Shown here piece by piece: positions 1 through 64,000 of a stretch of DNA of 64,000 nucleotides. The DNA lies in IMG/VR virus record IMGVR_UViG_3300031466_000074. One strand, written 5' to 3'. How positions within the stretch are numbered: the stretch's first letter is position 1; each line of letters opens with the position of its first letter. Below the pieces are notes generated by a model that was given only the letters and a program-made list of their open reading frames with translations, was not told the origin of the DNA and did not search any database. The translations under genes were made by a program, and so were the position numbers. The stretch is from a virus.

Positions 1-28
1 CATAAATAAAGGGCAAAGCGATAGAGCT

Positions 29-1990
29 TTACCCCAGCGTCTTGAACGCACCCATAAGCTCCAATGCCCCCAGATAACCGATAGGGAACAGGAATACCCC
101 TACTATCATCATGCCCAGCGGAATCAACGTTAACTTACCAGCCATTCTCCGCTTCTTCATGATCGCGGCTTGTGTCGTCATTTCCCGCATCTTGACCACG
201 TGTTCGCGCTCCAAAAGCAAAGACTCAAACGCCTCTCGAATGGACAACTCATTGATCGTAAGTTTAAGCTTTCCAAGGAAACGCTTAAACTCATAAATTG
301 GCGTTTTCGACTGCAAACGACTGATCTCCAACTCCGGATTAGATGGATAACAAAGCGCCGCGTAGACAAACATGTCTTTATGAATACGACTATTACGGGC
401 AAACTGATGCAGAAGCCCAAGGGTATCCGTATTGGTGTTCATAAGAATGGACGTAAGCGTCTGCAGTTGCAAGAAATCTTCCTGAGCCTCAGTTGCCGCG
501 ATATCCCGACGCATTTTGAGTGAACGATTCGGTGCAAACCAACCGACTACCCCCGTCGCATAAGCGATCAAGAGATAGTACCAATGGAAATACGCGTTCT
601 CAAGGTTCTTTGCCTTTGACTTCATCCGAGAAACCTGCTCATACACCTGCAAATCCGTCAGAAGCGGGAGATGGCTCCGAACAAGTTGCGCGATTTGGTC
701 GTCATTATAGGCTTTCGGGTTTTGCAGATAAATGGCGTCCATCTCTTTCATTTTTTCGCGGTCAAAAGCCGGAGTATTATCGGATGCGATAAGCGAAAGC
801 TGTTGCGTACTATGCCGCAAGAAGTCCTTGCTGATGCTAACCGCCAAAATGATCGTCATAATCGATAGAAGGATCGAAAAACCCGCGAGTAAGATCTTCT
901 TCGCGTAAAAGTGTTCGACGGTCATTTTGGAAAGTGCGGATTTCAACTTCCGTTCCAACAACACCCGCTTTTTGTTCTTCGGCGTGAGCGTGTAAACAAA
1001 ACGATAGAAGCGACGATTCTCCAACAAACGTGCAACAAAAGGAGAACGGTCATCCTCTTTCATTGGAATATTACAGTTGATTCGAGAAACGACCGTATAG
1101 CAAAGAATCGAAGCAAAAACAACCGCCGTTTGAATAACTTGACCAATAATCCCATTATAAACGAGGGCTACCCCCGGCATCGTGGAGGTCAAGAACATGG
1201 TACAAAGCGGTACCGCTGGAATAACTGCCAACGGCATGTACTCGATATATCCAAACTTGAGTTTGCGGAAGGTAATCCGCTGGATTTCCGAGTTAACATC
1301 TCCAATCAAGAGCGTAATGGCTTGCGAAAAGTTGGAGCGCCCCAACTCGTCCGTCTCATCGCCATCATTATTAATGCTAAAACAGATCGACGCGAACGTT
1401 TGAAGTGGACGAAACGGAGTAGACTCAATAAACTCCTGCAAACGAATCTCTCCGTTCGTTCCCGTCAAGATATTTGAAATGGTTTCCATCGGACGCTTAA
1501 TAATGTCAGGGTACTCGGCTTCATTCAGCGCATCTACAACACTGTTGGTACGGGAATATTCCTGCCGCACCGCATCAAGAGCATGCGCGGTTGCCACCAA
1601 AACCCTGAGATATATCCCATCAAGGCGTTTATCAATAACGATGTTGCTCAAGAAGATAGTGAAACCTACCCCAATCAGGATGATCAGGATGTTGTTAAAC
1701 AAAAGGATCATGACTACCGCCAAAACAATACTGCTACCCCACGACCACAGGAAGTATTTCACCGACTCACATCGAAGTTCATCCTTCCGATAAATCGACA
1801 GGTTCGCCAGCTTTTGCTGAATACGCAGATAATAGCGATAAGTCAAGAAAAACCGAGACAGAAACTTGTGCATCCGCGAATAAAACTTATTCATGATGCG
1901 GAGTTTTTCCGCCTTGGGTTTTCGGGAGTACCAGAAGAAGATACCCCCAATGGGGATGAATAAGGCGTAGATGATCAACAAAGCTTCCAT
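29..1990 (-). CDS. Tad pilus inner-membrane platform protein (probable TadB-TadC/T2SSF-like fusion)
   Basis: 653 aa with several TM segments arranged as two soluble-domain/TM units; directly downstream of and 1-nt coupled to a CpaF/TadA ATPase. Confidence 0.6.
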   Translation of the reverse strand: MEALLIIYALFIPIGGIFFWYSRKPKAEKLRIMNKFYSRMHKFLSRFFLTYRYYLRIQQKLANLSIYRKDELRCESVKYFLWSWGSSIVLAVVMILLFNNILIILIGVGFTIFLSNIVIDKRLDGIYLRVLVATAHALDAVRQEYSRTNSVVDALNEAEYPDIIKRPMETISNILTGTNGEIRLQEFIESTPFRPLQTFASICFSINNDGDETDELGRSNFSQAITLLIGDVNSEIQRITFRKLKFGYIEYMPLAVIPAVPLCTMFLTSTMPGVALVYNGIIGQVIQTAVVFASILCYTVVSRINCNIPMKEDDRSPFVARLLENRRFYRFVYTLTPKNKKRVLLERKLKSALSKMTVEHFYAKKILLAGFSILLSIMTIILAVSISKDFLRHSTQQLSLIASDNTPAFDREKMKEMDAIYLQNPKAYNDDQIAQLVRSHLPLLTDLQVYEQVSRMKSKAKNLENAYFHWYYLLIAYATGVVGWFAPNRSLKMRRDIAATEAQEDFLQLQTLTSILMNTNTDTLGLLHQFARNSRIHKDMFVYAALCYPSNPELEISRLQSKTPIYEFKRFLGKLKLTINELSIREAFESLLLEREHVVKMREMTTQAAIMKKRRMAGKLTLIPLGMMIVGVFLFPIGYLGALELMGAFKTLG

Positions 1991-4152
1991 TACGTCTCGA
2001 CACCTCCAGTGAAGAAGTCGAGCATAACTACATGGTCTTCGTCAATGTCGTTCGGAAGACCCGGAGTCAACTCATCGCTGGTGTCATTAGAAACCAAACG
2101 TTTCTTATGCTCTTCGTCAGCCATAATTTCCTGACGCAGATACTCGATCATGTCATCAGTAAGCATTTCCTCCATATCCGCTTGTTGGGCAGTAGCCGAC
2201 AAGCCTTGCAAAATCGGAGAGTCGGTATTCTGCTCTTTTGCCGCTTTCAAGCGATAATGATCGAGAACCGAAAGCGCCACTGGATCTTCCACAACCTGCC
2301 CATCCGCCAATGGTTTGCGGCGTCCCCAGTTAGCCAACATGAACTTATCGAACTCCTCGACTTCATGCCCCAAATTATCACGGATAATTTTCTCCAATCG
2401 AGGAGAAATACGTTCCACCGCGTAATAAGTCTTCGTTTTCGTATCATATCGCAAGATATCCTGCGTAATGAAGGTGACCGCCGCTGTGCGTCGAGTGTAA
2501 TACTCGCGTTGCATAACGGCTTGCGAATACGCCACATTATTCGGATCAATCTCAGGAAGCGGCTGAACCTCCAAGAGCGGGATAATTTCCGTAATCCGCT
2601 CAATATAACGCTGACCTTCGGCGTTGTAATCCAAATGGATATCGAAGTTGACAACTTCGAGGATCTGCGCCGTTGCCGTATCCATCGTAAAGCCACCCGC
2701 GTTAACCAGCGAGTTCCGCAGAGTATATACCAACTTCTCAGCGGTGTTCGCGTGGTGAGAGAAGATGGTAAACATCGATGCGGTCATACCCATTTGAATC
2801 ATCCGCGCCGCAACCTCGTCAGTTGCGACCTCACCGACCAACGAAACAGCGGCGTCAGATTTCTTCAGAGCGTCCTGAAGCTCCGTAGCAGTAACGTGCG
2901 TCGTCTCCTGAACAGAAAGGATGTTACGATTCGGATAAATTTCCCGCAAGTACAACTCAGGAGCCATTTCCAAGACCCGGATGGTCAAACGCGGATCAAT
3001 ATAACGAATGATCGAGGACATCAGCGTGGTCTTACCGGAACCTTGACGCCCAGTTACCCCGCACGTCATCTTGCCCTTGATCAAGAACTTGATCAAGTTA
3101 ATAACCAAATCGCCGTTAACGGTATAATCCTTGATAATAAGCTTCTCAGGTGTCGGATCAGAAATGGTGAACTTCCGAACAAAGACCGCCCAGTACTCAG
3201 AAGCCGGAGGTCGAAGTGCCAAGACGCGGGATTTGTCATACATAGTATTGACCAAATACCCCCGCTTCGCTGTGAGCGCACCCGGATTGTTATAACGAGC
3301 GATAAGCTGTACGACCCGACGAACTTCGTCTTCACTACCAAAGGACATGAAGCGGAAATGGATGTACTTCCCTTTGTAATACACCCAGACCGAATCCGTC
3401 GCTTTGAACGTCCCAGCATTATAAGCATTCAAGTTCGTCATAATACTACCGGAAGTACCAATATTGAAGCCGTTGATGTCCATCTCACGTAAGGTGTCAA
3501 GGATACCAAAGCCCGCATACTGCTGATACACCAAGATCGCCAAGAGGTCGATTTGCTCATCTATCGTAAGCTTGAAGTCCTCTTGCGTATAAATGGAGAT
3601 CAGTTCCTCGCGAGAAAAATAATAGTTCTGCAGATTCCCGTTCTCATCATAGCGCTCGCGGTCGAGATTGTACTTAGTAATAATGGCTTCAAGAGCTTTC
3701 TTCCCAAGTTGCTGATTGTTCTCATCCAGCATGCGCTTATACTTATACAACAGGATCTCGAAAATGACATGGTCGGACGGAACCAAACCATCCGACAGAC
3801 CAAGCAAGTCCGTGACCCGATGATGCGGTACATTATTAGCGATAAAAGAACGGATCAACTCAATGACAATAATCTTCGCAGAGTCAATACCATAAACGCA
3901 GTTCTTCAAAGCATCATTAATCCGAGCTTTACGCCGATACAACATATTGAACTCCGCTTCCGAAAGACCAAGAGAGTAATCCTCTTTAACGAGTTCTACC
4001 ATTTCATGCTTAACCGCTTCCAGAAGCTCTTCCATTGTGTTGTACTCTTCCTCCGGGATAAACTCCGTCCGGGATTTAGAGATGTAATACACCACAATGA
4101 GAGCGATGACAAAACCAACAATACTCGCTATCGTTAAGACGGTGTTCAACAT
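1990..4152 (-). CDS. cpaF: CpaF/TadA-family pilus assembly ATPase with N-terminal TM and long extension
   Basis: Walker A GRQGSGKT, Asp-box-like VLEMAPEL, Walker B-like VSLVGEV, His box FSHHANT; typical of the VirB11/TadA family. Confidence 0.85.
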   Translation of the reverse strand: MLNTVLTIASIVGFVIALIVVYYISKSRTEFIPEEEYNTMEELLEAVKHEMVELVKEDYSLGLSEAEFNMLYRRKARINDALKNCVYGIDSAKIIVIELIRSFIANNVPHHRVTDLLGLSDGLVPSDHVIFEILLYKYKRMLDENNQQLGKKALEAIITKYNLDRERYDENGNLQNYYFSREELISIYTQEDFKLTIDEQIDLLAILVYQQYAGFGILDTLREMDINGFNIGTSGSIMTNLNAYNAGTFKATDSVWVYYKGKYIHFRFMSFGSEDEVRRVVQLIARYNNPGALTAKRGYLVNTMYDKSRVLALRPPASEYWAVFVRKFTISDPTPEKLIIKDYTVNGDLVINLIKFLIKGKMTCGVTGRQGSGKTTLMSSIIRYIDPRLTIRVLEMAPELYLREIYPNRNILSVQETTHVTATELQDALKKSDAAVSLVGEVATDEVAARMIQMGMTASMFTIFSHHANTAEKLVYTLRNSLVNAGGFTMDTATAQILEVVNFDIHLDYNAEGQRYIERITEIIPLLEVQPLPEIDPNNVAYSQAVMQREYYTRRTAAVTFITQDILRYDTKTKTYYAVERISPRLEKIIRDNLGHEVEEFDKFMLANWGRRKPLADGQVVEDPVALSVLDHYRLKAAKEQNTDSPILQGLSATAQQADMEEMLTDDMIEYLRQEIMADEEHKKRLVSNDTSDELTPGLPNDIDEDHVVMLDFFTGGVET

Positions 4153-4155
4153 CGG

Positions 4156-4950
4156 TTAAACACCCCCGCGTGACTTCAAGATACGATTTCGAAGTTTAAC
4201 CACGGAGTTCGAGAGAGCCATATACCCCTTATACACGTCAATAGAGAGTGCATTTTTGTTTTTGCCGTTGATAAACACCAACGGGAGCTTTCCATTGTTA
4301 CAACCCCAACGTACCCACGAATTCTCACGAATGAGATGAAGCGGAGTTTTTACCTCCAAGAAGTTGGTGATAATTTTAGGCTTCTTCATCACAACAGGGT
4401 CGTAACGATTACAACAGAGCAAAAGTCTCTTACCCCGAAGGGTACGTTCATTATCCTTCAACCACTGCTTAAACAACTTAAGCTCCAAGAAATCCGGCGT
4501 AATATTCAGCACGACAATATGGGATTTAGCTATAATGGCGCTGGCATTATCCTCCGAAAGTGGAGTGTCCACATCAATAACCTTATACTCATAAGGCGAC
4601 TCCGCATCTGCCATATACGCCAAGAGCGTACCCATATCATACGGCGTGAACAGATTATCGAAATTGGTGAACACGTCCGTGTAGTCACCGAACTTCGTAC
4701 AATAATCCGCCACATCCTCTGGCTTCAAAGCACCCTCCCGAAGAAGCTTGACCAACTGAGTTGAAGTATTGGTCTTATCATCGAGAAGCTTCAAACCCAT
4801 ATAGGTTTGAAACGAATCTGAAAGCGATGACGTATGCGTCAAAAAGACACGACGCTTAGTCTCAGCCAAAGCCATCGACAACATCATCGCTGTAACCGTC
4901 GCTCCATTACGACGAGTATGTGGCGCAAGAACCGAAATTGTGACTGGCAT
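4156..4950 (-). CDS. CpaE/TadZ-like MinD/ParA-family protein with degenerate Walker A
   Basis: N-terminal ISVLAPHTRRNGATVTAMMLSMALA resembles a deviant P-loop; later VIDVD and LCCNRYD motifs; sits upstream of cpaF. Confidence 0.6.
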   Translation of the reverse strand: MPVTISVLAPHTRRNGATVTAMMLSMALAETKRRVFLTHTSSLSDSFQTYMGLKLLDDKTNTSTQLVKLLREGALKPEDVADYCTKFGDYTDVFTNFDNLFTPYDMGTLLAYMADAESPYEYKVIDVDTPLSEDNASAIIAKSHIVVLNITPDFLELKLFKQWLKDNERTLRGKRLLLCCNRYDPVVMKKPKIITNFLEVKTPLHLIRENSWVRWGCNNGKLPLVFINGKNKNALSIDVYKGYMALSNSVVKLRNRILKSRGGV

Positions 4951-4953
4951 ACG

Positions 4954-5538
4954 TTACTCCTTTCTAGCCAAAAGCTTGACTATAGTTTTCGACTCCAACC
5001 CCAACACTTTCCCAAAAAGTGTAGTGACGACTGCCACAGTTGCCTGATCCTCTAACGGAAGGAACTTTCGATAATCCTCACAATTGTAAATATACGCCAA
5101 AAGCGACGGAGTCGGAGTAATTTTCGGATACTCCAAATTCTTTGCCTTTGTCAGAGAAATGAAGACCCGCATGAACTCCTCATTATTCGGGAAATTCCCC
5201 ACCGTGGTATCCACAAAATCAAAACCCCGATTTACCCCTGATAGGGCTACTACACGCTCATAACCCTGCGGTATAAAATCATTGGACACCACCACAAGGT
5301 ACTCGAAGGGTTCATTGAGCGATTGAACCGTCTCCGTAACCACCTCTTGAGTTACAAGCGGAACGACGCGAATGGTGATATTGTCATTCTCAAACTCCAA
5401 CGAAAAGTCATCGTCGAAACGGCGGAACGCTGGTTCGTCCGTCACAACCAGCGTCTTCCCAAGGAATTTCAAACATTGAAGAAGCGGGTAGACAACCGGA
5501 CGCTTGTCTACCCCACCAATTACCGCTAATGTCTTCAT
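4954..5538 (-). CDS. Hypothetical protein of the tad operon (possible eroded P-loop fold)
   Basis: 194-aa ORF tightly packed between cpaB-like and cpaE-like genes with a good RBS. Confidence 0.5.
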   Translation of the reverse strand: MKTLAVIGGVDKRPVVYPLLQCLKFLGKTLVVTDEPAFRRFDDDFSLEFENDNITIRVVPLVTQEVVTETVQSLNEPFEYLVVVSNDFIPQGYERVVALSGVNRGFDFVDTTVGNFPNNEEFMRVFISLTKAKNLEYPKITPTPSLLAYIYNCEDYRKFLPLEDQATVAVVTTLFGKVLGLESKTIVKLLARKE

Positions 5539-5556
5539 GCCTAAACCCCCTACTTA

Positions 5557-6474: not shown

Positions 6475-6497
6475 GTACTTTTCCCTCCAAACCCGAA

Positions 6498-7091
6498 TTA
6501 AAATACTTCCTCTAAGTAGTCCTGCAAGGTGGGCAAAACCACACCTTCCTTCACTTCCCCCGCAAAAATAACGGTACTGAAGACCAGCACCCGAACGAGA
6601 TTTCTATCCTTACTTAAATAAAATTCAATAAATTGAGATGTGACTGCTTCAGAAACTACCGTGTATCCTTGATCTCGAAGAAAGTTTAGATACTTGGCAC
6701 TTGTCAACAAATCCGCTTCCCACGAATAGGGTGTATCTGTTTCCAAGGTCGTAATATCAAAAGACTCCTCCGTCTCAGGAAGAACTAAGAGGGGATTGGA
6801 TTTACGAACCACCGAAGTCAGAAACTTCTGTTCCACCCCATCCTTATAGAGCGCTGTACCATATCCGGGATAAGCGCGAAGCTCGTATACCCCCTCTTCA
6901 TTGGTGTACCGGAGAGCTACCTCGTAATCGAGAACAACTTCACCCTCCTCTGCATTCCCATTAAGACAGTACAGCATTACCCCCAAAGTAAGAAAAAGCA
7001 GGGGGGCGAGTACCATCGTCCAAAACCACCACGAAGCTCGACGTGGGGTTTTCACGTCCCCTGTTTCCGACATCTTACTCACCCCCATCAA
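6498..7091 (-). CDS. Hypothetical membrane-anchored protein
   Basis: One N-terminal TM (WWFWTMVLAPLLFLTLGVMLY); operonic. Confidence 0.6.
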   Translation of the reverse strand: MMGVSKMSETGDVKTPRRASWWFWTMVLAPLLFLTLGVMLYCLNGNAEEGEVVLDYEVALRYTNEEGVYELRAYPGYGTALYKDGVEQKFLTSVVRKSNPLLVLPETEESFDITTLETDTPYSWEADLLTSAKYLNFLRDQGYTVVSEAVTSQFIEFYLSKDRNLVRVLVFSTVIFAGEVKEGVVLPTLQDYLEEVF

Positions 7092-18922: not shown

Positions 18923-18953
18923 CGGTTACACCCTCCTTTCAGCGATACAGATA

Positions 18954-20213: not shown

Positions 20214-20289
20214 TGAAAAACCTCCTTACCGCAAAAGGATTTGACTTTTATAAAAATTGTAACTTGTAAGTTGGCAAAAAGAAAGCCCC

Positions 20290-21577: not shown

Positions 21578-21594
21578 ATATACCCCTCCTTTCC

Positions 21595-22179: not shown

Positions 22180-22183
22180 ACCG

Positions 22184-39950: not shown

Positions 39951-39968
39951 AAAGTCGGCAGTATGAAG

Positions 39969-56658: not shown

Positions 56659-59004
56659 TTAACTGATGTTGCTCAAAACCTCAACGTACATATTCACCCC
56701 ACCCACGGACGGAACGATCAGAGGAACCTTACTCCAATCGATCTCCTTTTCACTGAGATCAAACAGATCAGCGATATACGCCATGTTCCGATAATGCATT
56801 TCCGGGTTTCCGCCTTTAGCGAGGAAATAATGCAGATTACTAAACAGTCTAACCTTATGCCGATTGTCCGGGAACGCAGTATCTAAAGTAATAAACGAGT
56901 TCAACGCACTCCCCAAATCATCCTCCAAACAAAAGACCACAGAAGCGTACTGAACCAGATCCGGGAAATATTTCAGATTCTCAGCAGGACAATCAAAAAC
57001 AACAGTGCGATACAAACGCTGAGCGATGAAGACGTCTTGCAGAAGTTGCAAATGGTCATCATCAAACTCCGTGTCATACAGATTTGCGATACAATCGAAA
57101 CCCCCTTCAAAGAAAGGAAGGGAAACGTTGTCTAACATAGCGGCAGATTTAAGGCTGAGAAGACCTCTCTGAACATTTTCCTCTTCTTGAAGCAAATGAT
57201 CGAGAACTCCGAAAATAAGAGAACCCTTCCGCTTCAAATCAAAGTCCACGAAAAGTGTCTTCTTACGCCGACCAGCCGCCGCCGCAAGGTTAAAAGCAGT
57301 TGTCGTTACCCCCGAGCGTCGATCCCCAGTAACAATGATGAGTTCAGGAGCATTACTGCTACCCCCACGACGTCCACTACCCACTTCCTTGACAATAACA
57401 CGCTCAACAACGACTTTATTCCGTTCTGCTTGCTCCCGCTCCAACTCTTCTGCCAGTTTCGCGGCATCCGGCAAGTCCAAGTTCTCTTCCTCAGACACCA
57501 CTTCGACCGAAGGCGTGATAATTTTCGGGGCAAATACTTGCGGAACAGAGTCAGGAATGGGTGGAACATTTTCTTGTTTAAGTTTTTCCCCCAACTCGGT
57601 CAAACGACGTGTTTTATCTTGCCAAGAGGTATCTTCACTCAGTCTTGGTGTATCTGACTCTTCCGGGTACTGAATGGTAGTCGAAGCAGATGGAGTTTCA
57701 AATTCAGATGAAGAAGGAGACTCCGACTCAGACTCAAAAGCAGTAATCGACTCAGAGGACGAATCGATCTCTTCTGTATCCAAACCCCAATTGTCCTCGT
57801 CCCCTTCTGCATCCGCAAAAACGCCATCGGATGATTCCGACTCTACCGAAGGAGTAGAAGTGTCACCGAGTGATGAAGAACCCTCATCACCAGCACCTCC
57901 CCATGAAATACCCCCACCACGAACCGTGAAATCCATCCAAGAGTCATCACCATTGACAGAATGACCCTCATCCCCAGACGAACCTTCAAGAGAACTATCC
58001 TTCCCACTCGAAGGGAAAACACCTTCATCAGATGGCGATCCCCACCCCTCCAAAGAAGACTGATCTCCCGACGAAGGAAACAACTCCTCACTACCCGAAG
58101 GAGTGTCCCAGACATCTTCCGGCGGGAAGTCATCGTCTGCCATAGGCTCTCCGAAAGAAGAAACCTCCGATGTTTCGGACGGAAACGCAGACTCATCACC
58201 AGACTGAACCTCAGTGTCCCAAGCGTCTGAAGATTCATCCTCTGGAAGCCTTACCCCCAAACCAACATCGTTACCCGATTCAAAAGAAAAACCGGGAAGC
58301 GAAACCGGAGTTTCCTCTTCAGGTAAGGAGTCTGGATTGTCGAAATACCCCTCAAAGGATTCCGGCACAGGCTCAGACGCGGGAACCTCTTCTTCCGTGG
58401 CGGGAGATTCCGCTTCCTGTCCCTTCTTTTTCTTACCCCTACCGAACAAACCAAACAAGCCGCCCTTATCCTTCTTCTTTTCCGTGGGTACAGGTTTCTT
58501 TGGTTGAGAAGTAGACTTGGGCTTGGACTCGATAGTCTCATTGATAAGGTCTTCCCCATCACCAGCAGGACTCAATGCATCTTCACAATATGTCTTTTTA
58601 ATACGGTCAATATCCCACTCAACCACCGTGAAGATAAAGGAGGGCTTAACCTTCTCACAGAGAACAACCGCTGTGTAGATAGAAGAAAAGATTCGATTAA
58701 ACAGACGATAAACCGTTTCCCCAGTAGTAATGAAGATCACGCGACAACCAAAAAAGCGTTCGTAAAGATAAGTATTGAACGACGACAAAACTTCCTCGGG
58801 TTTCACATGCTCCGAGAGATTCTCGAAATCAAAGGCATTTTGCAGAATCAACAACCGATCATGATCAATACGACGAACTTGCGTCTCCCGCATAAAGTCC
58901 TGCACGGAATTATAAGTGGTGATCTGAATATTGTCAAAGCGACCAAGAATGAGTTGCTTCAACTGATCCGCCCGTGCTTTCTTACCGATAATACCGAGCT
59001 TCAT
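56659..59004 (-). CDS. MinD/CpaE-like protein: receiver-like N-terminus, long acidic disordered linker, C-terminal ParA/MinD domain
   Basis: IIVTGDRRSGVTTTAFNLA, LFVDFD, VVFDCP; GGLFGLFGR amphipathic motif. Confidence 0.7.
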   Translation of the reverse strand: MKLGIIGKKARADQLKQLILGRFDNIQITTYNSVQDFMRETQVRRIDHDRLLILQNAFDFENLSEHVKPEEVLSSFNTYLYERFFGCRVIFITTGETVYRLFNRIFSSIYTAVVLCEKVKPSFIFTVVEWDIDRIKKTYCEDALSPAGDGEDLINETIESKPKSTSQPKKPVPTEKKKDKGGLFGLFGRGKKKKGQEAESPATEEEVPASEPVPESFEGYFDNPDSLPEEETPVSLPGFSFESGNDVGLGVRLPEDESSDAWDTEVQSGDESAFPSETSEVSSFGEPMADDDFPPEDVWDTPSGSEELFPSSGDQSSLEGWGSPSDEGVFPSSGKDSSLEGSSGDEGHSVNGDDSWMDFTVRGGGISWGGAGDEGSSSLGDTSTPSVESESSDGVFADAEGDEDNWGLDTEEIDSSSESITAFESESESPSSSEFETPSASTTIQYPEESDTPRLSEDTSWQDKTRRLTELGEKLKQENVPPIPDSVPQVFAPKIITPSVEVVSEEENLDLPDAAKLAEELEREQAERNKVVVERVIVKEVGSGRRGGSSNAPELIIVTGDRRSGVTTTAFNLAAAAGRRKKTLFVDFDLKRKGSLIFGVLDHLLQEEENVQRGLLSLKSAAMLDNVSLPFFEGGFDCIANLYDTEFDDDHLQLLQDVFIAQRLYRTVVFDCPAENLKYFPDLVQYASVVFCLEDDLGSALNSFITLDTAFPDNRHKVRLFSNLHYFLAKGGNPEMHYRNMAYIADLFDLSEKEIDWSKVPLIVPSVGGVNMYVEVLSNIS

Positions 59005-59019: not shown

Positions 59020-60048
59020 TTAATCCAACGAAATCTCCTCGTCCGGTTGCTCATTTTTACGCTTAAACCAAGTGCGCTTCCGTTTGAGCTTCCGCTCCCC
59101 AGCAGATACACGCATATTGGCTCTCTTCTCTTCAGAAGTAAGGTTAAAGACGGTCTTAACTCCGTCCTTTTCTCCCCAAATTACTGTGAGCGGTGCGCTC
59201 AACTCGCGACTATTAAGTACATTCTCAATAGCATTATTGGGTGAGAAGGACTCCAAGTTAAACACCGTTTGCACTAGTTGACCAATCATATACTTGTTAA
59301 GGTACCGAATACGCGCAAAGTTCGCCCGCTTAAAACCAGACACCGCTTCACGGATATCCAAAAGAGCGTCATAATCGTCCTTCCGCCAATACAAACAGTA
59401 CACATCGTAAGTAGAAAATGCCCGTTGCATCGCTTTCTCCAGATAATCGTACTTCATAGTGATGAGGTAACGAAGATTCTTCCCATCAATCGAAGCGGCG
59501 GCGCTAAAAAGGTTATTCAAACGAGAATCTTTTCCGATGCTGTCCATGTAATCAATATGCGTAAACTCAATTTCTGCCTTCGCCAATTCCTTATAAACAT
59601 CCGCTATAGCCTGATGATGGTCAAAAACATAATCGTCTTCCTTACCGACGATTACCCCCTTATCGAGAGCGATGAAGACCCCACGATAACCGTTACGGAA
59701 CGTTACCACATACGGAAAGGTGTTCGATACCTCCACAATCGACCACAACAAATTTGTTCCGAACATATAGTTCGACTCTTCCAACGCCGCCCGCTTCTCC
59801 CGATAATAATGCTCCCGGAAAAGAAGAAAACGCATGACGTAAATGTACGCGATAGTCACTACCACCATCCAAAGCAGAGTTTGCCCAAGCGTGGACGCGG
59901 CAAGCGTAAGAAACATAAGAAAACCCCAAACCAACGTAAGCCCAATCCCAAGAAATACCTTAGAAGCTGTACTAGGCTTTCCACGCCGCTTCGAGTCAAA
60001 AGTCAAGGGTATTTCAATATGAGAGGTATTCTCGCGAGTAGGTTCCAT
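59020..60048 (-). CDS. Two-TM conjugation-associated membrane protein (possible PrgI/TcpE/VirB3-like)
   Basis: Two N-terminal TM helices plus a cytoplasmic domain; in the virB4 operon. Confidence 0.5.
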   Translation of the reverse strand: MEPTRENTSHIEIPLTFDSKRRGKPSTASKVFLGIGLTLVWGFLMFLTLAASTLGQTLLWMVVVTIAYIYVMRFLLFREHYYREKRAALEESNYMFGTNLLWSIVEVSNTFPYVVTFRNGYRGVFIALDKGVIVGKEDDYVFDHHQAIADVYKELAKAEIEFTHIDYMDSIGKDSRLNNLFSAAASIDGKNLRYLITMKYDYLEKAMQRAFSTYDVYCLYWRKDDYDALLDIREAVSGFKRANFARIRYLNKYMIGQLVQTVFNLESFSPNNAIENVLNSRELSAPLTVIWGEKDGVKTVFNLTSEEKRANMRVSAGERKLKRKRTWFKRKNEQPDEEISLD

Positions 60049-60060: not shown

Positions 60061-60573
60061 TCAAACAAACCTAAAGTCTTCAATAATACCGTTGATAACT
60101 GTCACCAACACCCGTGCAGTATAGGTTTGCCCACCCTTCTCAAAATTCAAAAGGACATAGTAGTCCGTAAACAGCGGATCACCAAGCTGATACTGCACCT
60201 CGACAAACGAAACCTTAGAAGCCCCAATGAAACGATAGGGATCATATGACTTACCATATAACGAGCTTACAACGTTTTCCGACAATTTTGGACTTGACTT
60301 AGAAGATTGATACGATGTTGCATCCGAAACCAAGAAAAAGTTACGTACCTCCGTAATCACCGTCTGCTTGTGATCCTCATACAACAAAAAGTGCGGATTC
60401 ATGGTGGAGTTAACATAAGCGATTTGCTTATTCTCCCATACCCCCATAACCACCACCCACACCATGATCACAAACGACACTGAAAACACAACCCAATACA
60501 AGATCTTCTTCCATCGTTTCTTAGGTTGCATAGAAATGTTTCTATCTTCAACAACCGAAGATTTATCGACCAT
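60061..60573 (-). CDS. Single-TM exported protein, VirB8/NTF2-like
   Basis: N-terminal TM; C-terminal beta meander YYVLLNF...RVLVTVINGIIEDF. Confidence 0.55.
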   Translation of the reverse strand: MVDKSSVVEDRNISMQPKKRWKKILYWVVFSVSFVIMVWVVVMGVWENKQIAYVNSTMNPHFLLYEDHKQTVITEVRNFFLVSDATSYQSSKSSPKLSENVVSSLYGKSYDPYRFIGASKVSFVEVQYQLGDPLFTDYYVLLNFEKGGQTYTARVLVTVINGIIEDFRFV

Positions 60574-61009
60574 CGCGTAATACCCCCACTTCGATCTTTT
60601 CTAAACCTTGAGGTGTCCAAATAGCCTCTACACGATATCTGAAGTCCGCCGCACTAAACAGCATAAAATGACGAACCCCATTATACCCGAATGCCGTGAA
60701 AAAGGCTTCATACGCCGGAGTGTCGTAGGGGAGAGTCCCCAAAATATTTCGCACTTCTTCCGAAAAAGAGAACCCTTCTGGGATAGTTAAATTTCCAGAG
60801 TTCTCTCCAGTAGTAACGAAGTCAATCAAAACATCACGATTTTTCTCAGCTAATCTCTTAGCAGAGAGGTAGGAATCTAATGTACTTTCCACAACTCCAT
60901 TATATTCCTCAATCTCACGCGCAAGAGTTTCCGAAGATGCCCCACAAGCCGAGAGTAGTAGAGGGAGCGCCCCGAGTACAAGAACAAACAGTAAACGTCT
61001 CACGTTCAT
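60563..61009 (-). CDS. Lipoprotein
   Basis: Lipobox LLSA|C; C-terminal beta meander. Confidence 0.7.
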   Translation of the reverse strand: MNVRRLLFVLVLGALPLLLSACGASSETLAREIEEYNGVVESTLDSYLSAKRLAEKNRDVLIDFVTTGENSGNLTIPEGFSFSEEVRNILGTLPYDTPAYEAFFTAFGYNGVRHFMLFSAADFRYRVEAIWTPQGLEKIEVGVLRDGR

Positions 61010-61039
61010 ACCTCCTAATAGAAAAGGTGTTCTAGAAAC

Positions 61040-61492
61040 CTAGAACACCTTGTATAAATTTGCTATGCGTCCTTCTTCAAAGATGATCAAGGTTGTAAAC
61101 TGGCGATCCCCGGTTGGGGTACGCTGAACCAAATCCGCCTTAAAGACGAAATCCCCGGAAGGAGAAGGTTGACCAACAATACGTTTGACCGCCAGTGGAT
61201 AGTAAGTTCCTTCCTGATAGGAAGAAAAGTAGTTCAACCAAAAGTCCGATGTCATGCGAGAGAAGTAACGCTGTCGCTTAGACTGGAAGTCTTCTTCCGA
61301 ACTAAAATATAAGATGTCGGGTAACTCCAAAACCAACGACTTTGCCGTGAAATAAGCAGTCAACTCATGCTTCGTCCTATTTAATTCCGCTCGGTAGGGT
61401 GAGCCGACAATCAAGTCATAAGCGATAAACGCCACGACTATAACAAACGCCACCACGCTAGACAGCGTGAATAACCGTCTCCACGTCAACAA
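61040..61492 (-). CDS. Single-TM exported protein, VirB8/NTF2-like
   Basis: TTG start with RBS AAGGAGGGTG; TM helix; ends TLIIFEEGRIANL. Confidence 0.6.
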   Translation of the reverse strand: MLTWRRLFTLSSVVAFVIVVAFIAYDLIVGSPYRAELNRTKHELTAYFTAKSLVLELPDILYFSSEEDFQSKRQRYFSRMTSDFWLNYFSSYQEGTYYPLAVKRIVGQPSPSGDFVFKADLVQRTPTGDRQFTTLIIFEEGRIANLYKVF

Positions 61493-61889
61493 TCTCACCC
61501 TCCTTATACCAAATGAAAATAGATGCCGACTTACCATTTGAGTTGTAAAAATGAATCATTTGTTCAACTACACCCGTAGTGTCATCAAGAAACAAATAGT
61601 TTTCAATATATGGATCGAAGGGTACGTCTGGTGACTGATATTTGTTGATATGCTCAACGAATGCTCTAATATTGTCCTCGTACCCCGCATAAGGGGAGTT
61701 GGACACCGAGAACGTATTCGAGTTTAAGTAATGGATAACCTCCAAATAAAACTCCTTCGAAGGGGCTTCTGCCACCGCATAAGCCGACAAAAGAGACTGT
61801 ACTTTCTCATTCTCAGCGGTATTACCCCCTTCACACCCCACCAATACACACAAGAGCAGGAGAACAAACACCAAACGAACCCACTTCAT
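61458..61889 (-). CDS. Lipoprotein
   Basis: Lipobox LVG|C; ends IFIWYKEGEIVDV. Confidence 0.7.
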   Translation of the reverse strand: MKWVRLVFVLLLLCVLVGCEGGNTAENEKVQSLLSAYAVAEAPSKEFYLEVIHYLNSNTFSVSNSPYAGYEDNIRAFVEHINKYQSPDVPFDPYIENYLFLDDTTGVVEQMIHFYNSNGKSASIFIWYKEGEIVDVETVIHAV

Positions 61890-62650
61890 TGTCGCACCTC
61901 AAAACGAGTGAACTTATACCCCTCGAAATACAACCTGACCAATAGGGGTTTTTGCGTCACCGACGACGCGAAAGTCGCATCAAAGAAACCAGAGGACTTA
62001 TTCTCCCTCCGTAAGAAGGAGTCCTTAAAATTGTAATGATAGTCAAGGTCATTTTTCATCATCTCGAAGGTGATAGGAACAAGGGATTTCGAGATAACGT
62101 ACTCAGACCCATCATACACAACAACGTCCCAACCCTCGTCATTAAAGTGCAAATCATTAACCCGAATTACCCAATCCCCATTTTGATCAAACAAACGAGG
62201 ATCGAACATACCGAAGGTTTCTTTGTTCAAGTCGATATCCTCAATATCAGAATCTGGAACCTCGGTGTCCTCTTCATCGGAAGGGATGCTATCCAAATCA
62301 GGCATCGCTTCAATTTCCGAACCAGACATACTCTCGCTTTCCAACCACTGCGTCATATTAAAAACCTGCTCGTCCTTCGATTCCAAGTCCCGATAATGTT
62401 GCTCATAAGCAACAAACACACCCGGATCAAAGAAAGAAGAATCCACTGTCAACTGCAAATTAGGGTCGTACCAACCGTAGAAAGAAGCCGCCAAAGACTT
62501 AGCGAAAAGCAAACCATTTTCCTGCAGTGCATCAACCTTTTGCTTTTCCAAATCCCCAAGCAGTTTTGCCATTGTAACCCCTGCTACCAATAGCGTGAGA
62601 AAACTAATGATAAGCACCCACAGCAAATACTTCCGAGACAACAGCTCCAT
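61886..62650 (-). CDS. Single-TM exported protein with internal acidic loop
   Basis: N-terminal TM; ends LVRLYFEGYKFTRFEV. Confidence 0.65.
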   Translation of the reverse strand: MELLSRKYLLWVLIISFLTLLVAGVTMAKLLGDLEKQKVDALQENGLLFAKSLAASFYGWYDPNLQLTVDSSFFDPGVFVAYEQHYRDLESKDEQVFNMTQWLESESMSGSEIEAMPDLDSIPSDEEDTEVPDSDIEDIDLNKETFGMFDPRLFDQNGDWVIRVNDLHFNDEGWDVVVYDGSEYVISKSLVPITFEMMKNDLDYHYNFKDSFLRRENKSSGFFDATFASSVTQKPLLVRLYFEGYKFTRFEVRQ

Positions 62651-62663
62651 CTCAAATACCTCC

Positions 62664-64000
62664 TCAATATACTAAGAGTACATAGTTTGCGGCTGAACTC
62701 GCTTTCCGCAGTTCCTCACGACCCCACAACTTAAGGGAATCCGATACATCAGACGAAGAATACATTCGATATTTCTTCGTACCATTTTCCTCGATTAACT
62801 TATTAATAACCACAAAGTGATCCGAACCCCTTGAAGCGATTGGAGGATCGGAGAATTTAGCGATAACCAAACCCCCATTCCGCAAAGTTTCATCGATCTT
62901 ATCCCACGTACTCGTTGCACGAATATTCGAAACTTCCTTCACCTTCAAACCGAACAACCCAAAAAGAGTCGGTAACCCAGAACGCTGTAGCCCATCACTG
63001 CTAAGCGAATTTGTCATATACATAAGCGCCGCCGTTTCAGGGGGATTAATCCCGATCCGCGTCTTTGCCGTGAGGACGTAAGCAACAGAATAGATCATAC
63101 AACCATTACGAGAGAACGTCCATCTGCCATTCTTATCCCGACGAGTACTCCAAGGTTGCCCACCATACAACTCGATATCAGCACTCTGACGTTGGAAAGG
63201 CACTTGATAAGGGTCAGATTCTAAAGGATAGGCTTCACGCAAAGCCTCAGCTTTAGAATCCTCCCCTTGCTCATATGCAGAAACACCAAAGTAGTTAATC
63301 AAATTATTGATGATAGTTACTGCATCATCCGGCAACTGCGATTTCTTTACCTCTTCATAATAACGACGAGTAGTGTAGGTTTGCCCGCCAATCGTAAAGG
63401 TCGCGTTACCCTCGGGATTCTTACCCCCGTAAACGATTTCGGAGCGGAGCGGTACGACCTTCTTTTCAAGGATTTCAATAATAGCTTTTCCTTGAATGAA
63501 AGAGTTAAACCCATAATGGAAGTTCAAAGTGCGAGTTTGCATGTTACCGGAGTAGCCCGACATTTTCTTAAGCTCTTGCCAAGCCTCCTCCATCGCTACA
63601 CGCCGACTTTCAGGGTAAGTCGACATATTTGCTTCTGACATAATGAACTTCCAAACAGGCTCCTCCAAAACCCTACCATTAAGCTTCATTCTAATAGAAT
63701 TATCACCCAACTTCAACTCCGTGTGATGCTTCCACTTCGGATCATTCATACCCTCGCTACCAATAAAAATCTTACGGAACTTGTACTCCGGTACAGCAGG
63801 AAAGGCGTCTTCATCCTTATTTGTCAAAGCTACAAGTTCCCAATTATAGAGACTGCGAGTATCGTCCGAATCACCAGAAACATAGTAAAGAGCGCACCAA
63901 AAATTGAAATAATGTTCGTACTCCGTTTGAGATACCCCATGATAATGGGCTTGAAGAAGGAAATAGTAAAGCATAGTGTAAAGCTCCATACGGCGTTTCT
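62664..64000 (-). CDS. C39-like (papain-fold) peptidase domain protein, probably 5'-truncated by the window edge
   Basis: Q-P-W...GCMIYSVAYVL (Cys) and SDHFVVI (His); frame stays open upstream of the Met at 63989. Confidence 0.7.
   Translation of the reverse strand, partial: KRRMELYTMLYYFLLQAHYHGVSQTEYEHYFNFWCALYYVSGDSDDTRSLYNWELVALTNKDEDAFPAVPEYKFRKIFIGSEGMNDPKWKHHTELKLGDNSIRMKLNGRVLEEPVWKFIMSEANMSTYPESRRVAMEEAWQELKKMSGYSGNMQTRTLNFHYGFNSFIQGKAIIEILEKKVVPLRSEIVYGGKNPEGNATFTIGGQTYTTRRYYEEVKKSQLPDDAVTIINNLINYFGVSAYEQGEDSKAEALREAYPLESDPYQVPFQRQSADIELYGGQPWSTRRDKNGRWTFSRNGCMIYSVAYVLTAKTRIGINPPETAALMYMTNSLSSDGLQRSGLPTLFGLFGLKVKEVSNIRATSTWDKIDETLRNGGLVIAKFSDPPIASRGSDHFVVINKLIEENGTKKYRMYSSSDVSDSLKLWGREELRKASSAANYVLLVY

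Follow-up and report, generated by a model that had tools for sequence, protein, structure and literature searches.

Genes of the window

The window, a 64-kb stretch from the middle of an element of at least 229 kb, carries transfer-type genes, replication-type and partition genes, a giant surface protein gene and a filament operon. Gene context was read over 111 kb of the 229-kb contig, window included. All genes run in one direction across the 111 kb, every window ORF of at least 100 aa giving a family match lies on the minus strand, and the GC skew on the plus strand is negative throughout the window. The window holds no tRNAs. The gene content claimed in a first-pass annotation proved largely real, most labels being upheld by HMM, BLAST or structure.

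The transfer core genes and their neighbours are as follows.

62664..64000, minus: membrane-anchored protein of 745 aa, 3′ part; its gene extends past the window end and is whole on the contig
60061..62650, minus: five small proteins (254, 143, 165, 148 and 170 aa), all bearing a hydrophobic helix at the N-terminus; predicted membrane components of the transfer module
59020..60048, minus: 342-aa PrgI/VirB3-VirB4N-like protein with two VirB3-like TM helices and a VirB4 N-terminal-domain-like fold
56659..59004, minus: 781-aa protein with a C-terminal ParA/MinD-like (AAA_31/CbiA) domain (ESM Atlas)
55152..56645, minus: membrane protein of 497 aa with coiled coils, part of the transfer module (weak SMC/coiled-coil-type matches; TM 59-77)
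53085..55148, minus: T4SS ATPase of VirB4-like type, orthologous to that of the pXO16 tip locus
50496..52928, minus: FtsK/SpoIIIE-type membrane ATPase (Pfam FtsK_SpoIIIE, E 2e-12)
47601..49319, minus: 572-aa protein anchored at its N-terminus, with NTF2-like repeats (Atlas NTF2-like/SnoaL/DUF4440 rows, low scores)
43660..45300, minus: SNF2/DEAD-type helicase (Pfam SNF2-rel_dom and Helicase_C)

The VirB4-like ATPase is 39.7% identical to its pXO16 orthologue (E 1e-132). A profile of 15 homologues has VirB4 4ag5 as its sole PDB match (E 8.7e-9); the NCBIfam VirB4 models match the ATPase weakly, and PF12846 AAA_10 is present in many of its homologues. The FtsK-type ATPase, a putative coupling protein or DNA translocase, matches FtsK, EccC and a 'DNA translocase coupling protein' in the PDB, is 37.8% identical to the pXO16 FtsK-domain protein and is kept in 15 loci. 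The helicase, 32.8% identical to the one downstream of FtsK in pXO16, is found 2–6 kb after FtsK in 11 related loci.

The AF2 model of the 342-aa protein has R388 TrwK/VirB4 chains as its best Foldseek PDB matches (probability 0.99–1.0), and among its AFDB cluster matches are 'PrgI family protein' and 'conjugal transfer protein' (E as low as 5e-8). Its gene is kept in 16 related loci and in pXO16, and the run of small genes upstream recurs on a 311-kb relative. The VirB3/VirB4N-like protein, the VirB4-like ATPase, the FtsK-type ATPase, the helicase and a large multi-TM protein make up a five-gene transfer core, which 19 related loci carry.

Clostridioides difficile CD160 keeps the 497-aa protein and homologues of the 781-aa protein (27% identity), of the 745-aa protein next to VirB4 (28%) and of the 572-aa protein next to FtsK (47%). 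The last is a possible VirB8/TcpC-like component, as a lead only. The 781-aa protein gave no Pfam match but ESM Atlas features of 0.96–0.97, with Soj/ParA structural rows at TM 0.54–0.63 by hit. The 745-aa protein, likewise without a Pfam match, is a candidate wall hydrolase of the transfer module; the C39 peptidase proposed earlier was not found, and the nearest sign is a weak NlpC/P60 match on the 745-aa orthologue of the 311-kb relative.

The middle genes are of replication, partition and mixed types.

46959-47579, minus: tdk
30939..42071, minus: replication-type block including small unknowns (Pfam)
39969-42071, minus: GyrB-like (Pfam)
36114-38273, minus: GyrA-like (Pfam)
33070-35184, minus: DnaB-like helicase (Pfam, weak)
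31752-33011, minus: MBL-fold protein (Pfam)
24144..29966, minus: ParM, a small ParR-position gene, membrane proteins and a 931-985-aa ATPase
29112-29966, minus: ParM (ALP_N, E 2e-21)
24144-27101, minus: third large ATPase, SPP1 gene-32 family (phrog_5156, E 1.7e-137)
17403..23385, minus: mixed block with the five genes that follow
22588-23385, minus: EAL c-di-GMP phosphodiesterase (Pfam)
21595-22179, minus: CHC2 primase zinc finger (Pfam)
20528-21577, minus: 349-aa protein, weakly RuvC-like
18954-20213, minus: LigA-type ligase, adenylation domain (Pfam)
18128-18922, minus: R2K ATP-grasp (Pfam)

The replication-type block is collinear with pXO16 at 30–36% identity, as are the CHC2, 349-aa and LigA genes in order, and GyrA lies near VirB4 in 9 of the 15 IMG/VR relatives. 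The earlier labels VirB4, FtsK-type ATPase, M23, ParM, GyrA/B, LigA and tdk all hold. The DnaB-like label has its match, a weak one, and the RuvC label rests on one weak PHROG match (E 8e-4). A third FtsK-HerA ATPase had also been named. A large ATPase does lie at that place, but it is a homologue of SPP1 gene 32 (phrog_5156) and not a recognised T4SS ATPase; by tblastn it matches 104 phage records and 41 plasmids, best Alicyclobacillus phage MMB025 (36%).

The low-numbered end holds the giant protein gene and the filament operon.

8573..17164, minus: 2863-aa surface protein (PF12810, E 3e-58)
29..8460, minus: Tad/archaeal-type type IV filament operon, running on beyond position 1
7075-8460, minus: M23 peptidase (E 4e-32)
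5557-6474, minus: CpaB-like SAF protein
4156-4950, minus: 264-aa 'CpaE-like' protein, degenerate ParA-like
1990-4152, minus: TadA/CpaF-like ATPase, 720 aa, N-terminal TM (Pfam T2SSE 27.9 bits, cut-off 24.9)
29-1990, minus: FlaJ/TadBC-like platform, 653 aa (AF2 model and Foldseek)

The operon runs from M23 through a 197-aa TM protein, the CpaB-like protein, a 194-aa protein, the ParA-like protein and the ATPase to the platform. Past position 1 it goes on into six pilin-like genes, one gene of 337 aa and genes for thioredoxin/DsbD. The TadA, CpaB and TadBC-like labels stand, the first on T2SSE, TIGR03819 (E 1e-11) and CpaF, its top PDB match (E 1.4e-8) ahead of archaeal GspE and FlaI, the second on the SAF match. 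The platform gave no Pfam match; its model matches FlaJ, TcpE, GspF and HofC with high probability, at E 8e-3 and TM 0.22–0.25. The CpaE-like protein is position-conserved with a pTHECO01 slot annotated ParA, but its Walker A looks degenerate. Scores for the Tad-type labels fall under the NCBIfam cut-offs, and the Tad label for the cassette is a weak one by sequence.

The 2863-aa protein has an N-terminus of signal type, two glycine-rich domains of the ALK/LTK type and a TM segment close to its C-terminus (TM at 11-29 and 2794-2812). Its C-terminal ~450 aa are 23% identical to DUF5704 proteins of pTHECO01 and pSSII-1, which are placed after the cassette there.

Relatives of the backbone and of the cassette

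The closest relative is pXO16 (pBTHD789-1, NC_018516; 350 kb, Bacillus thuringiensis sv. israelensis), a conjugative megaplasmid that is itself little understood. Within the 111 kb read, 17 pXO16 ORFs are matched in the same order and orientation at 22–42% identity. They include a clamp-loader-like ATPase, a YdjM-type hydrolase, an 1835-aa multi-TM protein, the VirB3/VirB4N-like protein, the VirB4-like ATPase, the FtsK-type ATPase, SNF2 helicase, GyrB, GyrA, DnaB, CHC2 finger, LigA and an HNH protein. The tip transfer locus and the replication genes are both taken in. The hexamer GGGGTA is strand-polar in both, with strand counts of 166:5 here and 658:5 in pXO16.

The conjugation role of the pXO16 tip locus was shown by experiment, conjugative ssDNA transfer was demonstrated and no plaques were found; all CDS have one orientation, giant aggregation proteins are present and a relaxase was not identified (PMC9673590, PMC6199540). 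Relaxase families gave no match in our window or the wider 111 kb either, as the first-pass annotation had said for the window.

That annotation had proposed an undescribed class of element. We do not retain this, because its backbone of transfer and replication genes follows the order of pXO16; by gene order and protein similarity, the element is a distant relative within the pXO16 family. A pilus-assembly ATPase had also been noted alongside T4SS genes before, on the large Bacillales plasmid pBsph (PMC4363355).

The pXO16-type core is widespread. At least 423 VirB4-like homologues occur in metagenomes, on contigs of up to 410 kb, and 15 relatives are stored in IMG/VR as viral genomes or proviruses. 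Five of these (180–284 kb) have terminal repeats, consistent with circles, and five are flagged 'provirus' with host-like flanks trimmed, so integrated forms may exist. Terminase_6N and HK97 capsid were not found in the 5 relatives tested, nor Phage_portal and Terminase_6C in 14 relatives and pXO16. It is new here that several relatives filed as 'viruses' are without the tested phage hallmark genes.

The filament cassette is less widely kept. It is missing from pXO16, C. difficile CD160 and 12 of the 15 IMG/VR relatives, so it is dispensable for this type of T4SS. A 311-kb relative has VirB4 and the Tad platform on the same strand, 90 kb apart, with gene orders as in the element and a 3503-aa counterpart of the giant protein in the same position. 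Contigs of sizes 178,399, 194,524 and 93,201 recur in the VirB4 and platform homologue lists alike. A subclade of pXO16-type elements adds the cassette and the giant surface protein, which is also new here.

The cassette order is found again on pTHECO01 (Thermobacillus composti), pSSII-1 (Lysinibacillus sphaericus, as pBsph), pBpOF4-01 and pRSJ17_1. On pTHECO01, pSSII-1 and pRSJ17_1, the cassette, a DUF5704-type giant protein and c-di-GMP enzymes adjoin T4SS, T4CP or relaxase-type genes; pBpOF4-01 has this set with no transfer genes nearby. Each carrier plasmid examined has its own VirB4 match, canonical AAA_10 in pTHECO01 and weak in pSSII-1. The linkage of filament and giant protein is conserved, and their co-residence with T4SS genes is recurrent. 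We found no functional study of these plasmid cassettes in the literature.

Nature of the element and role of the filament

The window is very probably the central part of a conjugative element of the pXO16 family, from a compost Bacillota host, with a separate filament cassette. The element appears giant and of extrachromosomal type, brings replication-type genes of its own, shows no relaxase and is probably conjugative, as the first pass had also proposed; we infer conjugation from 30–40% identical proteins.

The transfer core would be a divergent Gram-positive type IV secretion system, to judge from pXO16 genetics. The channel would consist of the VirB4-like ATPase and a membrane scaffold. 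Coupling and DNA pumping would fall to the FtsK-type ATPase, helped by the conserved helicase, and a non-canonical, still unrecognised relaxase would process the DNA. The cassette is a separate Tad/archaeal-type filament machine of M23, CpaB-like, degenerate ParA-like, CpaF-like ATPase, platform, six pilin-like proteins and thioredoxin/DsbD, with the 2863-aa protein encoded beside it. Its filament may display or cooperate with the 2863-aa protein for cell–cell or cell–surface adhesion, perhaps under c-di-GMP control, with an EAL gene nearby. The cassette could replace the sortase-dependent aggregation region of pXO16 and stabilise mating pairs, in the manner of the thin pilus of R64 among IncI1 plasmids, while not being required for the T4SS as such. 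The predicted pilus role in mating is plausible.

The filament might instead be the conjugative pilus or DNA conduit itself, integral to the transfer machine. On pRSJ17_1 the cassette comes immediately after T4SS-type genes, on their downstream side, and on pTHECO01 and pSSII-1 it has T4CP and replication-relaxation genes as neighbours; the nearest NCBIfam model to its ATPase is 'TadA family conjugal transfer-associated ATPase'. Moreover, pBsph-like plasmids with the cassette are conjugative (PMC13239906), and a subclade keeps cassette and T4SS together. However, pXO16 conjugates efficiently and most wider relatives exist without the cassette, which sits 45–90 kb from the T4SS core beside the giant surface protein gene, and the carrier plasmids have VirB4 of their own. 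We regard such a pilus or conduit as unlikely.

Two other readings concern the element as a whole. A jumbo phage or phage-plasmid, using the 'T4SS' ATPases for genome packaging or injection, would suit the filing of the 15 relatives, the single gene direction, the gyrase, DnaB, ligase, TK and RNR set, the SPP1 gene-32-type ATPase and the Uroviricota labels on Atlas neighbours of the 781-aa protein, and the pXO16 authors themselves raised a phage-like nature (PMC6199540). It is nevertheless very improbable, given that Pfam finds no structural phage genes over 111 kb of contig, the 5 relatives tested for Terminase_6N and HK97 capsid and the 14 tested, with pXO16, for Phage_portal and Terminase_6C are without them, pXO16 transfers ssDNA by conjugation without plaques, and comparable megaplasmids have been mis-filed as huge phages (preprint 10.64898/2026.02.21.707213). 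A giant integrative conjugative element or chromosomal island, in place of a free plasmid, would agree with the 'provirus' flags, with no replication initiator being identified in the 111 kb and with contig ends that are reproducible across assemblies. The contig starts at the same base in two assemblies, so it might be linear or repeat-ended. It totals ~229 kb in both, though, with no chromosomal continuation; the 111 kb read contain no integrase and no chromosomal core genes; ParM partition genes are present, and pXO16 and the five repeat-ended relatives are circular replicons. Integration is thus quite improbable, and a free pXO16-type conjugative element is preferred.

Comparison with known systems

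The element resembles pXO16 in its giant size, single CDS orientation, lack of a recognisable relaxase, giant surface protein region and strand-polar GGGGTA motif. It differs in coming from compost, bioreactor and similar metagenomes and not from the B. cereus group, in its higher GC (about 47%) and in a protein identity of merely 22–42%. pXO16 has no Tad-like cassette, no 2863-aa protein and no SPP1 gene-32-type ATPase, and its aggregation uses sortase-linked adhesins instead.

The cassette is like the Caulobacter/Aggregatibacter Tad (Flp) pilus in that CpaF is the best solved relative of its ATPase and that it has a SAF-domain CpaB/RcpC-like protein, and like archaeal type IV filaments (archaellum FlaI/FlaJ) in a platform model resembling FlaJ, and also TcpE and GspF. 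As differences, no Flp-type pilin motif, prepilin peptidase or secretin was found in the element, its ATPase is extended by ~250 aa and carries a TM at the N-terminus, one fused protein of 653 aa serves as platform, and an M23 hydrolase heads the operon.

The cassettes of pTHECO01, pBsph/pSSII-1, pBpOF4-01 and pRSJ17_1 share the order of SAF/CpaB-like, small protein, ParA-like, TadA-like ATPase (33–39% identity), 650–690-aa platform (22–24%), pilin-like genes and ~330-aa gene. As in the element, a giant surface protein with the DUF5704-type C-terminal region, nearby c-di-GMP enzymes and a T4SS occur on one replicon with the cassette. These plasmids have other backbones, however, with a different VirB4, VirD4-type coupling proteins and replication-relaxation proteins, and their giant protein comes after the cassette, not before it.

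The small plasmid pCW3 (Clostridium perfringens) has in its Tcp system an FtsK-type coupling protein, comparable with the putative one of the element. The pXO16 authors liken their system to pCW3 (PMC6199540). The 'Hodor' gut megaplasmids of Bacillota (>300 kb) carry VirB4/VirB6/VirD4, giant surface proteins, Rep_3, SecYEG, sortases and a MOBH-like HD relaxase, are without a canonical relaxase and were mis-filed as huge phages (preprint 10.64898/2026.02.21.707213). Membership of the element among them is not supported, because SecY and TraI_2 were not found in its relatives.

R64 (IncI1) is a conjugative plasmid that has a type IV pilus in addition to its T4SS; the adhesin of this pilus keeps mating pairs stable in liquid. 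It differs from the element in its Gram-negative host, a type IVb and not Tad-type pilus, the PilV shufflon adhesin and a canonical relaxase. R64 pil papers are cited in PMC3244431. With a type IV pilus beside a T4SS, its thin pilus is the functional model for the mating-pair idea.

Kinship with pXO16 and the gene layout

Judged by its sequence, the element is a distant variant of the pXO16 kind, named after the conjugative plasmid of Bacillus thuringiensis sv. israelensis (NC_018516), and carries an uncharacterised filament and adhesin cassette. We compared the whole pXO16 with 111 kb of the contig in both directions. Homologues of 17 pXO16 ORFs are found there at 22–42% identity, with order and orientation exactly kept, and the collinear stretch spans ~96 kb here and ~88 kb in pXO16. 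The ORFs matched by tblastn include:

First part: 431-aa AAA ATPase, YdjM-type hydrolase, 1834-aa protein, 445-aa protein
Middle part: VirB4-like ATPase, FtsK-domain protein, helicase, GyrB, GyrA
Last part: DnaB, CHC2 finger, 291-aa protein, LigA, HNH

Among complete plasmids, tblastn with the VirB4-like protein finds matches in Bacillus only, the best of them on ~350-kb B. thuringiensis israelensis plasmids (39.8% identity, E 4e-123). These plasmids are pXO16, which NC_018516 records under the name pBTHD789-1 (PMC6199540). Compared by tblastn with the ATPases of the NC_018516 transfer locus 'tip', the VirB4-like protein is 39.7% identical (E 1e-132) and the FtsK/SpoIIIE-type ATPase 37.8% identical (E 1e-84).

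Published work describes pXO16 as a 350-kb plasmid with few CDS that have database homologues (PMC9673590, PMC6199540), all CDS sharing one orientation (PMC6199540). Its 25-kb tip locus, which encodes two ATPases and a hydrolase, mediates conjugation, as deletion has shown; the aggregation region is separate, no relaxase or oriT has been identified, and the ssDNA transfer is called 'distantly related to T4SS, like pCW3' (PMC9673590, PMC6199540). The first-pass annotation had proposed an undescribed class of element. This proposal is contradicted by the 17 collinear ORFs and is not tenable, because the published description of pXO16 matches that annotation's own observations. We found no paper on 'pXO16-like' elements. 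Sequence comparison makes it quite probable that the element belongs to the pXO16 family and encodes a type IV secretion system (T4SS).

ORF calls and HMM searches place all credible window genes on the minus strand. The GC skew on the plus strand is negative throughout the window, and no tRNAs occur in it. Read from 64000 to 1, the direction of transcription, the window falls into four gene blocks by HMM searches:

Block a, start (minus strand): membrane-rich, five small TM proteins, then 342-aa, 781-aa and 497-aa coiled-coil proteins
Block a, middle: 53085-55148 (minus), 687-aa DUF87/VirB4-like ATPase, then an 810-aa FtsK/SpoIIIE-type ATPase
Block a, end (minus strand): 572-aa anchored protein, then thymidine kinase, SprT-like protein and SNF2 helicase
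Block b (minus strand): GyrB-, GyrA- and DnaB-like genes and an MBL-fold protein
Block c: 29112-29966 (minus), ParM; 24144-27101 (minus), 931-985-aa ATPase
Block d, start: 22588-23385 (minus), EAL protein; then CHC2 primase finger, LigA-type ligase and R2K ATP-grasp (minus)
Block d, end (minus strand): 2863-aa glycine-rich-domain protein, then M23 peptidase, SAF/CpaB-like protein, T2SSE-family ATPase and 653-aa polytopic protein

By HMM searches the gene list of the first-pass annotation is essentially right, with three exceptions. A C39 peptidase was searched for and not found. RuvC has a PHROG match, but a weak one (E 8e-4). The 'third FtsK-HerA ATPase' is indeed a large ATPase, yet the gene after ParM is a full-length member of phrog_5156, the SPP1 gene 32 family (E 1.7e-137). 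This ATPase type occurs in 104 phage records (Bacillus, Geobacillus, Alicyclobacillus) and on 41 Bacillus or Clostridium plasmids, including B. cereus-group ones, and is absent from pXO16. In phage MMB025 it likewise follows 'partition protein' genes.

Exact-protein matches place the window, reversed, at ~97–161 kb of the 229,235-bp JGI metagenome contig Ga0373396_000077. A second assembly holds the same sequence in two contigs, Ga0310838_1000066 (169,403 bp) and Ga0310838_1000251 (59,781 bp). The two independent assemblies have an identical first base of the element and an equal summed length, and the shared start suggests either a true end of a linear replicon or a fixed repeat at a circle junction. 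Metagenomes of 16 studies contain near-identical DNA (phyllosphere, mixed culture, bioreactor, compost and sheep gut), and megablast of 24 kb against plasmid and phage collections gave no match.

Comparison of the contig covers 111.6 kb of its 229,235 bp. The single orientation noted in the first-pass annotation holds for every gene there, and precomputed Pfam of the flanks shows no ribosomal or other core genes, integrase, phage structural genes or relaxase in this stretch. Upstream of the window end (contig ~69–89 kb), genes for the NrdI-NrdE-NrdF ribonucleotide reductase precede the transfer genes, together with one for a clamp-loader ATPase that is pol III delta'-like and shares 42% identity with an ORF of pXO16. 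Past position 1, the rest of the filament operon is followed by HNH, bactofilin, glucosaminidase, WGR-PARP and reverse transcriptase genes. The WGR-PARP_reg-PARP (poly-ADP-ribose polymerase-like) gene lies at L066:16571-17980, in a contig stretch at ~176–181 kb, with a NERD protein also among its co-oriented neighbours; an RT-like gene is present in pXO16 too.

The transfer module and its wider family

The VirB4 and FtsK-type coupling ATPase named in the first-pass annotation are borne out by profile, domain and pXO16 orthologues alike. A profile of 15 VirB4-like family members has a single solved match, VirB4 of Thermoanaerobacter (4ag5, E 8.7e-9). NCBIfam NF045975/NF045971 match the protein weakly, below cut-off, and AAA_10 is found on many homologues. 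The VirB4-like gene is that at 53085-55148; the ORF at 56659-59004 has no VirB4 signal. The FtsK-type protein has TM segments as well as an FtsK_SpoIIIE domain, and its PDB matches include FtsK, EccC and a 'DNA translocase coupling protein'.

The AF2 model of the 342-aa protein shows two N-terminal TM helices and then an alpha/beta domain, whose top PDB neighbours are the N-terminal regions of R388 TrwK/VirB4 chains (probability 0.99-1.0). Its AFDB neighbours include a 'PrgI family protein' and conjugal transfer proteins. Because of these neighbours, the protein seems to be a VirB3 joined to a VirB4 N-terminal domain, with a gene apart from that of the VirB4-like ATPase; confidence in this VirB3/PrgI-like assignment is moderate since the model pLDDT is 66. 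Further leads are the 1835-aa protein, with TM clusters and a conserved C-terminal half, as a VirB6-like candidate, the 572-aa NTF2-like protein as a VirB8-like candidate from Atlas, and the 745-aa protein as a candidate hydrolase, an orthologue having a weak NlpC/P60 match. Pfam, NCBIfam and PHROGs return nothing for the 745-aa, a 720-aa and the 1835-aa protein.

The first-pass annotation saw no relaxase in the window, and the HMM check agrees: relaxase Pfam families match no window ORF, nor anything in the precomputed Pfam of the flanks (111 of 229 kb). Replic_Relax and TraI_2 are also absent from pXO16 and the relatives searched (14 for TraI_2). By the genetics of pXO16, the core would be a Gram-positive T4SS of divergent type that has an FtsK-type pump, an associated helicase and, for DNA processing, a putative non-canonical enzyme.

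The hexamer GGGGTA is strongly polar, with 166 copies on the coding strand of the window and 5 on the other; it occurs between genes as well as in each of the three frames. pXO16 has 658 and 5 copies, respectively, and in several relatives the related polar words GGGTAT, GGTATT and GGTATC dominate. None of these words is enriched in unrelated cassette-bearing plasmids or phage MMB025. The polar word is a family signature; speculatively, GGGGTA could guide the FtsK-type pump in the manner of KOPS/SRS or serve as a signal for priming.

The family has many members. Metagenomes contain at least 423 homologues of the VirB4-like protein at E<=1e-10; among the matches listed, identities are 46–75%, closer than pXO16, and contigs reach 410 kb. 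A single-protein scan of IMG/VR with VirB4 gave no match, and the relatives in IMG/VR and in species-representative genomes were found by profile scan. The latter are C. difficile CD160 and Oscillospiraceae, Lachnospiraceae and Clostridia MAGs. In IMG/VR, 15 'viral' contigs of 26–284 kb match the profile, five of them with terminal repeats. A five-gene core is kept across 19 loci:

C-terminal half of the ~1835-aa multi-TM protein
342-aa protein
VirB4-like ATPase
FtsK-type ATPase
SNF2 helicase

GyrA follows in 9 of the 15 IMG/VR relatives. A compact, syntenic form of the transfer module, without the Tad cassette, lies on contig AVHW01000009 (40.3 kb) of C. difficile CD160 and matches the 745-, 342-, 781- and 497-aa proteins, VirB4 (45%), a 45-aa peptide and FtsK, as well as the 572-aa protein (47%) and LigA.

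The IMG/VR relatives are filed as viruses or proviruses, several as 'complete' by CheckV. Terminase_6N and the HK97 capsid (Phage_capsid) are absent from the five relatives tested, Phage_portal and Terminase_6C from 14 relatives and pXO16, and no phage terminase, portal or capsid appears in the precomputed Pfam of the contig's 111 kb. We reject a jumbo-phage reading on the absence of these hallmark genes; divergent structural genes could escape such a search. Because the relatives are without the phage markers tested, the 'virus' label looks like misfiling, and these records are probably misclassified megaplasmids. Other Bacillota megaplasmids have likewise been misfiled (preprint 10.64898/2026.02.21.707213).

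In the literature pXO16 stands as the unique conjugation device of one B. thuringiensis serovar, with relaxase and oriT unknown. The window places its transfer-plus-replication backbone in a large, deeply diverged family of 180-410-kb elements in Bacilli and Clostridia. Its members come from compost, bioreactors and C. difficile, Oscillospiraceae and Lachnospiraceae genomes or MAGs, and many are probably misfiled as viruses. The five-gene core, the separate VirB3/VirB4-N-like gene and the shared polar motif are concrete starting points for learning how DNA is moved by a relaxase-less Gram-positive T4SS.

The filament cassette

The cassette begins in the window with the operon at 29-8460 (minus strand) and continues past position 1. 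Its 720-aa ATPase exceeds the Pfam T2SSE cut-off and scores far below the NCBIfam equivalog cut-offs. Among solved structures CpaF is closest (E 1.4e-8), then archaeal GspE and FlaI, not VirB11, and the plasmid homologues are annotated TadA. The CpaB-like protein matches SAF at 25.5 bits (cut-off 21) and TIGR03177 weakly.

For the 653-aa platform protein, Atlas gives a T2SSF lead. All high-probability AFDB-SwissProt neighbours of its AF2 model (pLDDT 75) are platform proteins (FlaJ 0.97 and 0.91, GspF 0.91, TcpE 0.87, HofC 0.82), and these matches are otherwise weak (E 8e-3 to 5e-2, TM 0.15-0.27). Foldseek against the PDB found no meaningful match. A 264-aa protein, the candidate for a TadZ/CpaE ParA-like component, has a Walker A that by eye seems degenerate, and its one match is the gene in the corresponding position on plasmid pSSII-1 (E 4e-6). 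Pfam, NCBIfam and PHROGs have nothing for the platform, 264-aa, 194-aa and pilin-like proteins.

Past position 1 are six proteins of 143–225 aa that all start with a short charged stretch and have a single hydrophobic helix; a KG|S/T site is present in two of them. The Flp motif (G/XXXXEY) is absent from all six, and no prepilin peptidase (TadV/Peptidase_A24) is found in the 111 kb read. From these features the six look like pilins without the Flp motif. They are followed by a 337-aa protein and then by a thioredoxin/DsbD pair, a membrane-anchored thioredoxin and a DsbD/CcdA-type protein, at L006:17593-18857 on this contig and at L070:20427-21619 on a 311-kb relative. Two cysteines occur in at least one of the pilin-like proteins. 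The ComGC pseudopilin of B. subtilis requires BdbDC, which the pair here recalls.

The first-pass annotation had named a Tad pilus. The TadA/CpaF-clade ATPase fits that name and the SAF and platform matches are weak leads to it, but neither Flp prepilin nor prepilin peptidase is found in the 111 kb read. Rather than a canonical Flp pilus, the cassette is best described as a type IV filament system of Tad/archaeal type, adapted to the Gram-positive wall and with an M23 hydrolase at its head.

Co-occurrence of tad and T4SS loci in relatives holds in part. The 311-kb contig has VirB4 at 130.7 kb and the platform at 220.4 kb on one strand; its gene orders agree with those of this element and extend to a 3503-aa giant protein, M23 and thioredoxin/DsbD. 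The closest genome-binned relative, a Clostridia MAG, also has the cassette (VirB4 56%, TadA-like 64% identity), and three more contigs (178,399, 194,524 and 93,201) match in size across both homologue lists. The cassette is absent, however, from pXO16, C. difficile CD160 and 12 of the 15 IMG/VR relatives.

Outside the pXO16 family it occurs on pTHECO01, pSSII-1 (pBsph-like), pBpOF4-01 and pRSJ17_1. On all four, genes for a wall-binding protein and for a protein of ~960-1200 aa come after it, the latter annotated as DUF5704 on three, and the C-terminal region of the 2863-aa protein is common to the DUF5704 proteins of pTHECO01 and pSSII-1. On pTHECO01 and pSSII-1 the neighbours of the cassette are coupling-protein and replication-relaxation genes, on pRSJ17_1 T4SS-type genes; pTHECO01 has a canonical VirB4 elsewhere, and pSSII-1 a weak VirB4 match. 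Plasmids of the pBsph type are conjugative, and a pBsph 'pilus assembly ATPase' beside VirB4, VirB6 and VirD4 was noted in 2015 (PMC13239906, PMC4363355). From the distribution of the cassette and its partner proteins in the family and on the four plasmids, the link between filament and giant protein is conserved. That between filament and T4SS is a recurrent co-residence, not an obligatory one.

GGDEF or HD genes usually lie beside the cassette on these plasmids, directly after it on pTHECO01, pBpOF4-01 and pRSJ17_1. Together with the EAL phosphodiesterase of this element, they hint at c-di-GMP control of filament and adhesin.

The product of the cassette would be a surface filament; together with the giant protein it would serve adhesion or aggregation, with possible tuning by c-di-GMP. 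The cassette would fill the role of the pXO16 aggregation region, which boosts transfer without being essential, and the R64 thin pilus would be its analogue. The mating-pair contact proposed in the first-pass annotation is a tentative possibility, the cassette perhaps aiding it in some way. That the cassette is an integral conjugative pilus is unlikely. Slightly less likely again is the fuller proposal that the filament and its giant tip or partner protein form a dedicated conjugative pilus, in a pXO16-type subclade and in unrelated large Bacillota plasmids, beside a relaxase-less T4SS with a GGGGTA-reading FtsK-type pump. If true, it would be the first pilus-assisted mating system in Gram-positive bacteria.

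We found no paper that examines the function of the Tad-like cassette on Gram-positive plasmids. It is an uncharacterised unit of type IV filament and giant adhesin that moves between large Gram-positive plasmids. Since cassette-bearing plasmids can be studied genetically, pilus-assisted Gram-positive conjugation is directly testable; the cassette is tractable in pBsph-like plasmids, the core in pXO16.

Comparison with known megaplasmids

The Hodor megaplasmids differ from this element in their SecY/SecE/SecG and sortase surface module and their MOBH-like HD relaxase, none of which is on the contig stretch read. SecY is also absent from the 15 relatives, and on this ground a link to Hodor is rejected; TraI_2 is likewise missing from the 14 relatives searched.

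The likeness to pXO16 is close in several respects. Both tip-locus ATPases have orthologues here, within a collinear backbone of replication genes and a single CDS orientation, and both elements have no recognisable relaxase or oriT (here in 111 of 229 kb). They differ in the agr-type aggregation region of pXO16, with its sortase and isopeptide/Ig-like giant adhesins: no sortase is found in the 111 kb read, and tblastn finds no pXO16 counterpart of the 2863-aa protein. In place of that region, this element carries a different adhesin and the filament cassette.
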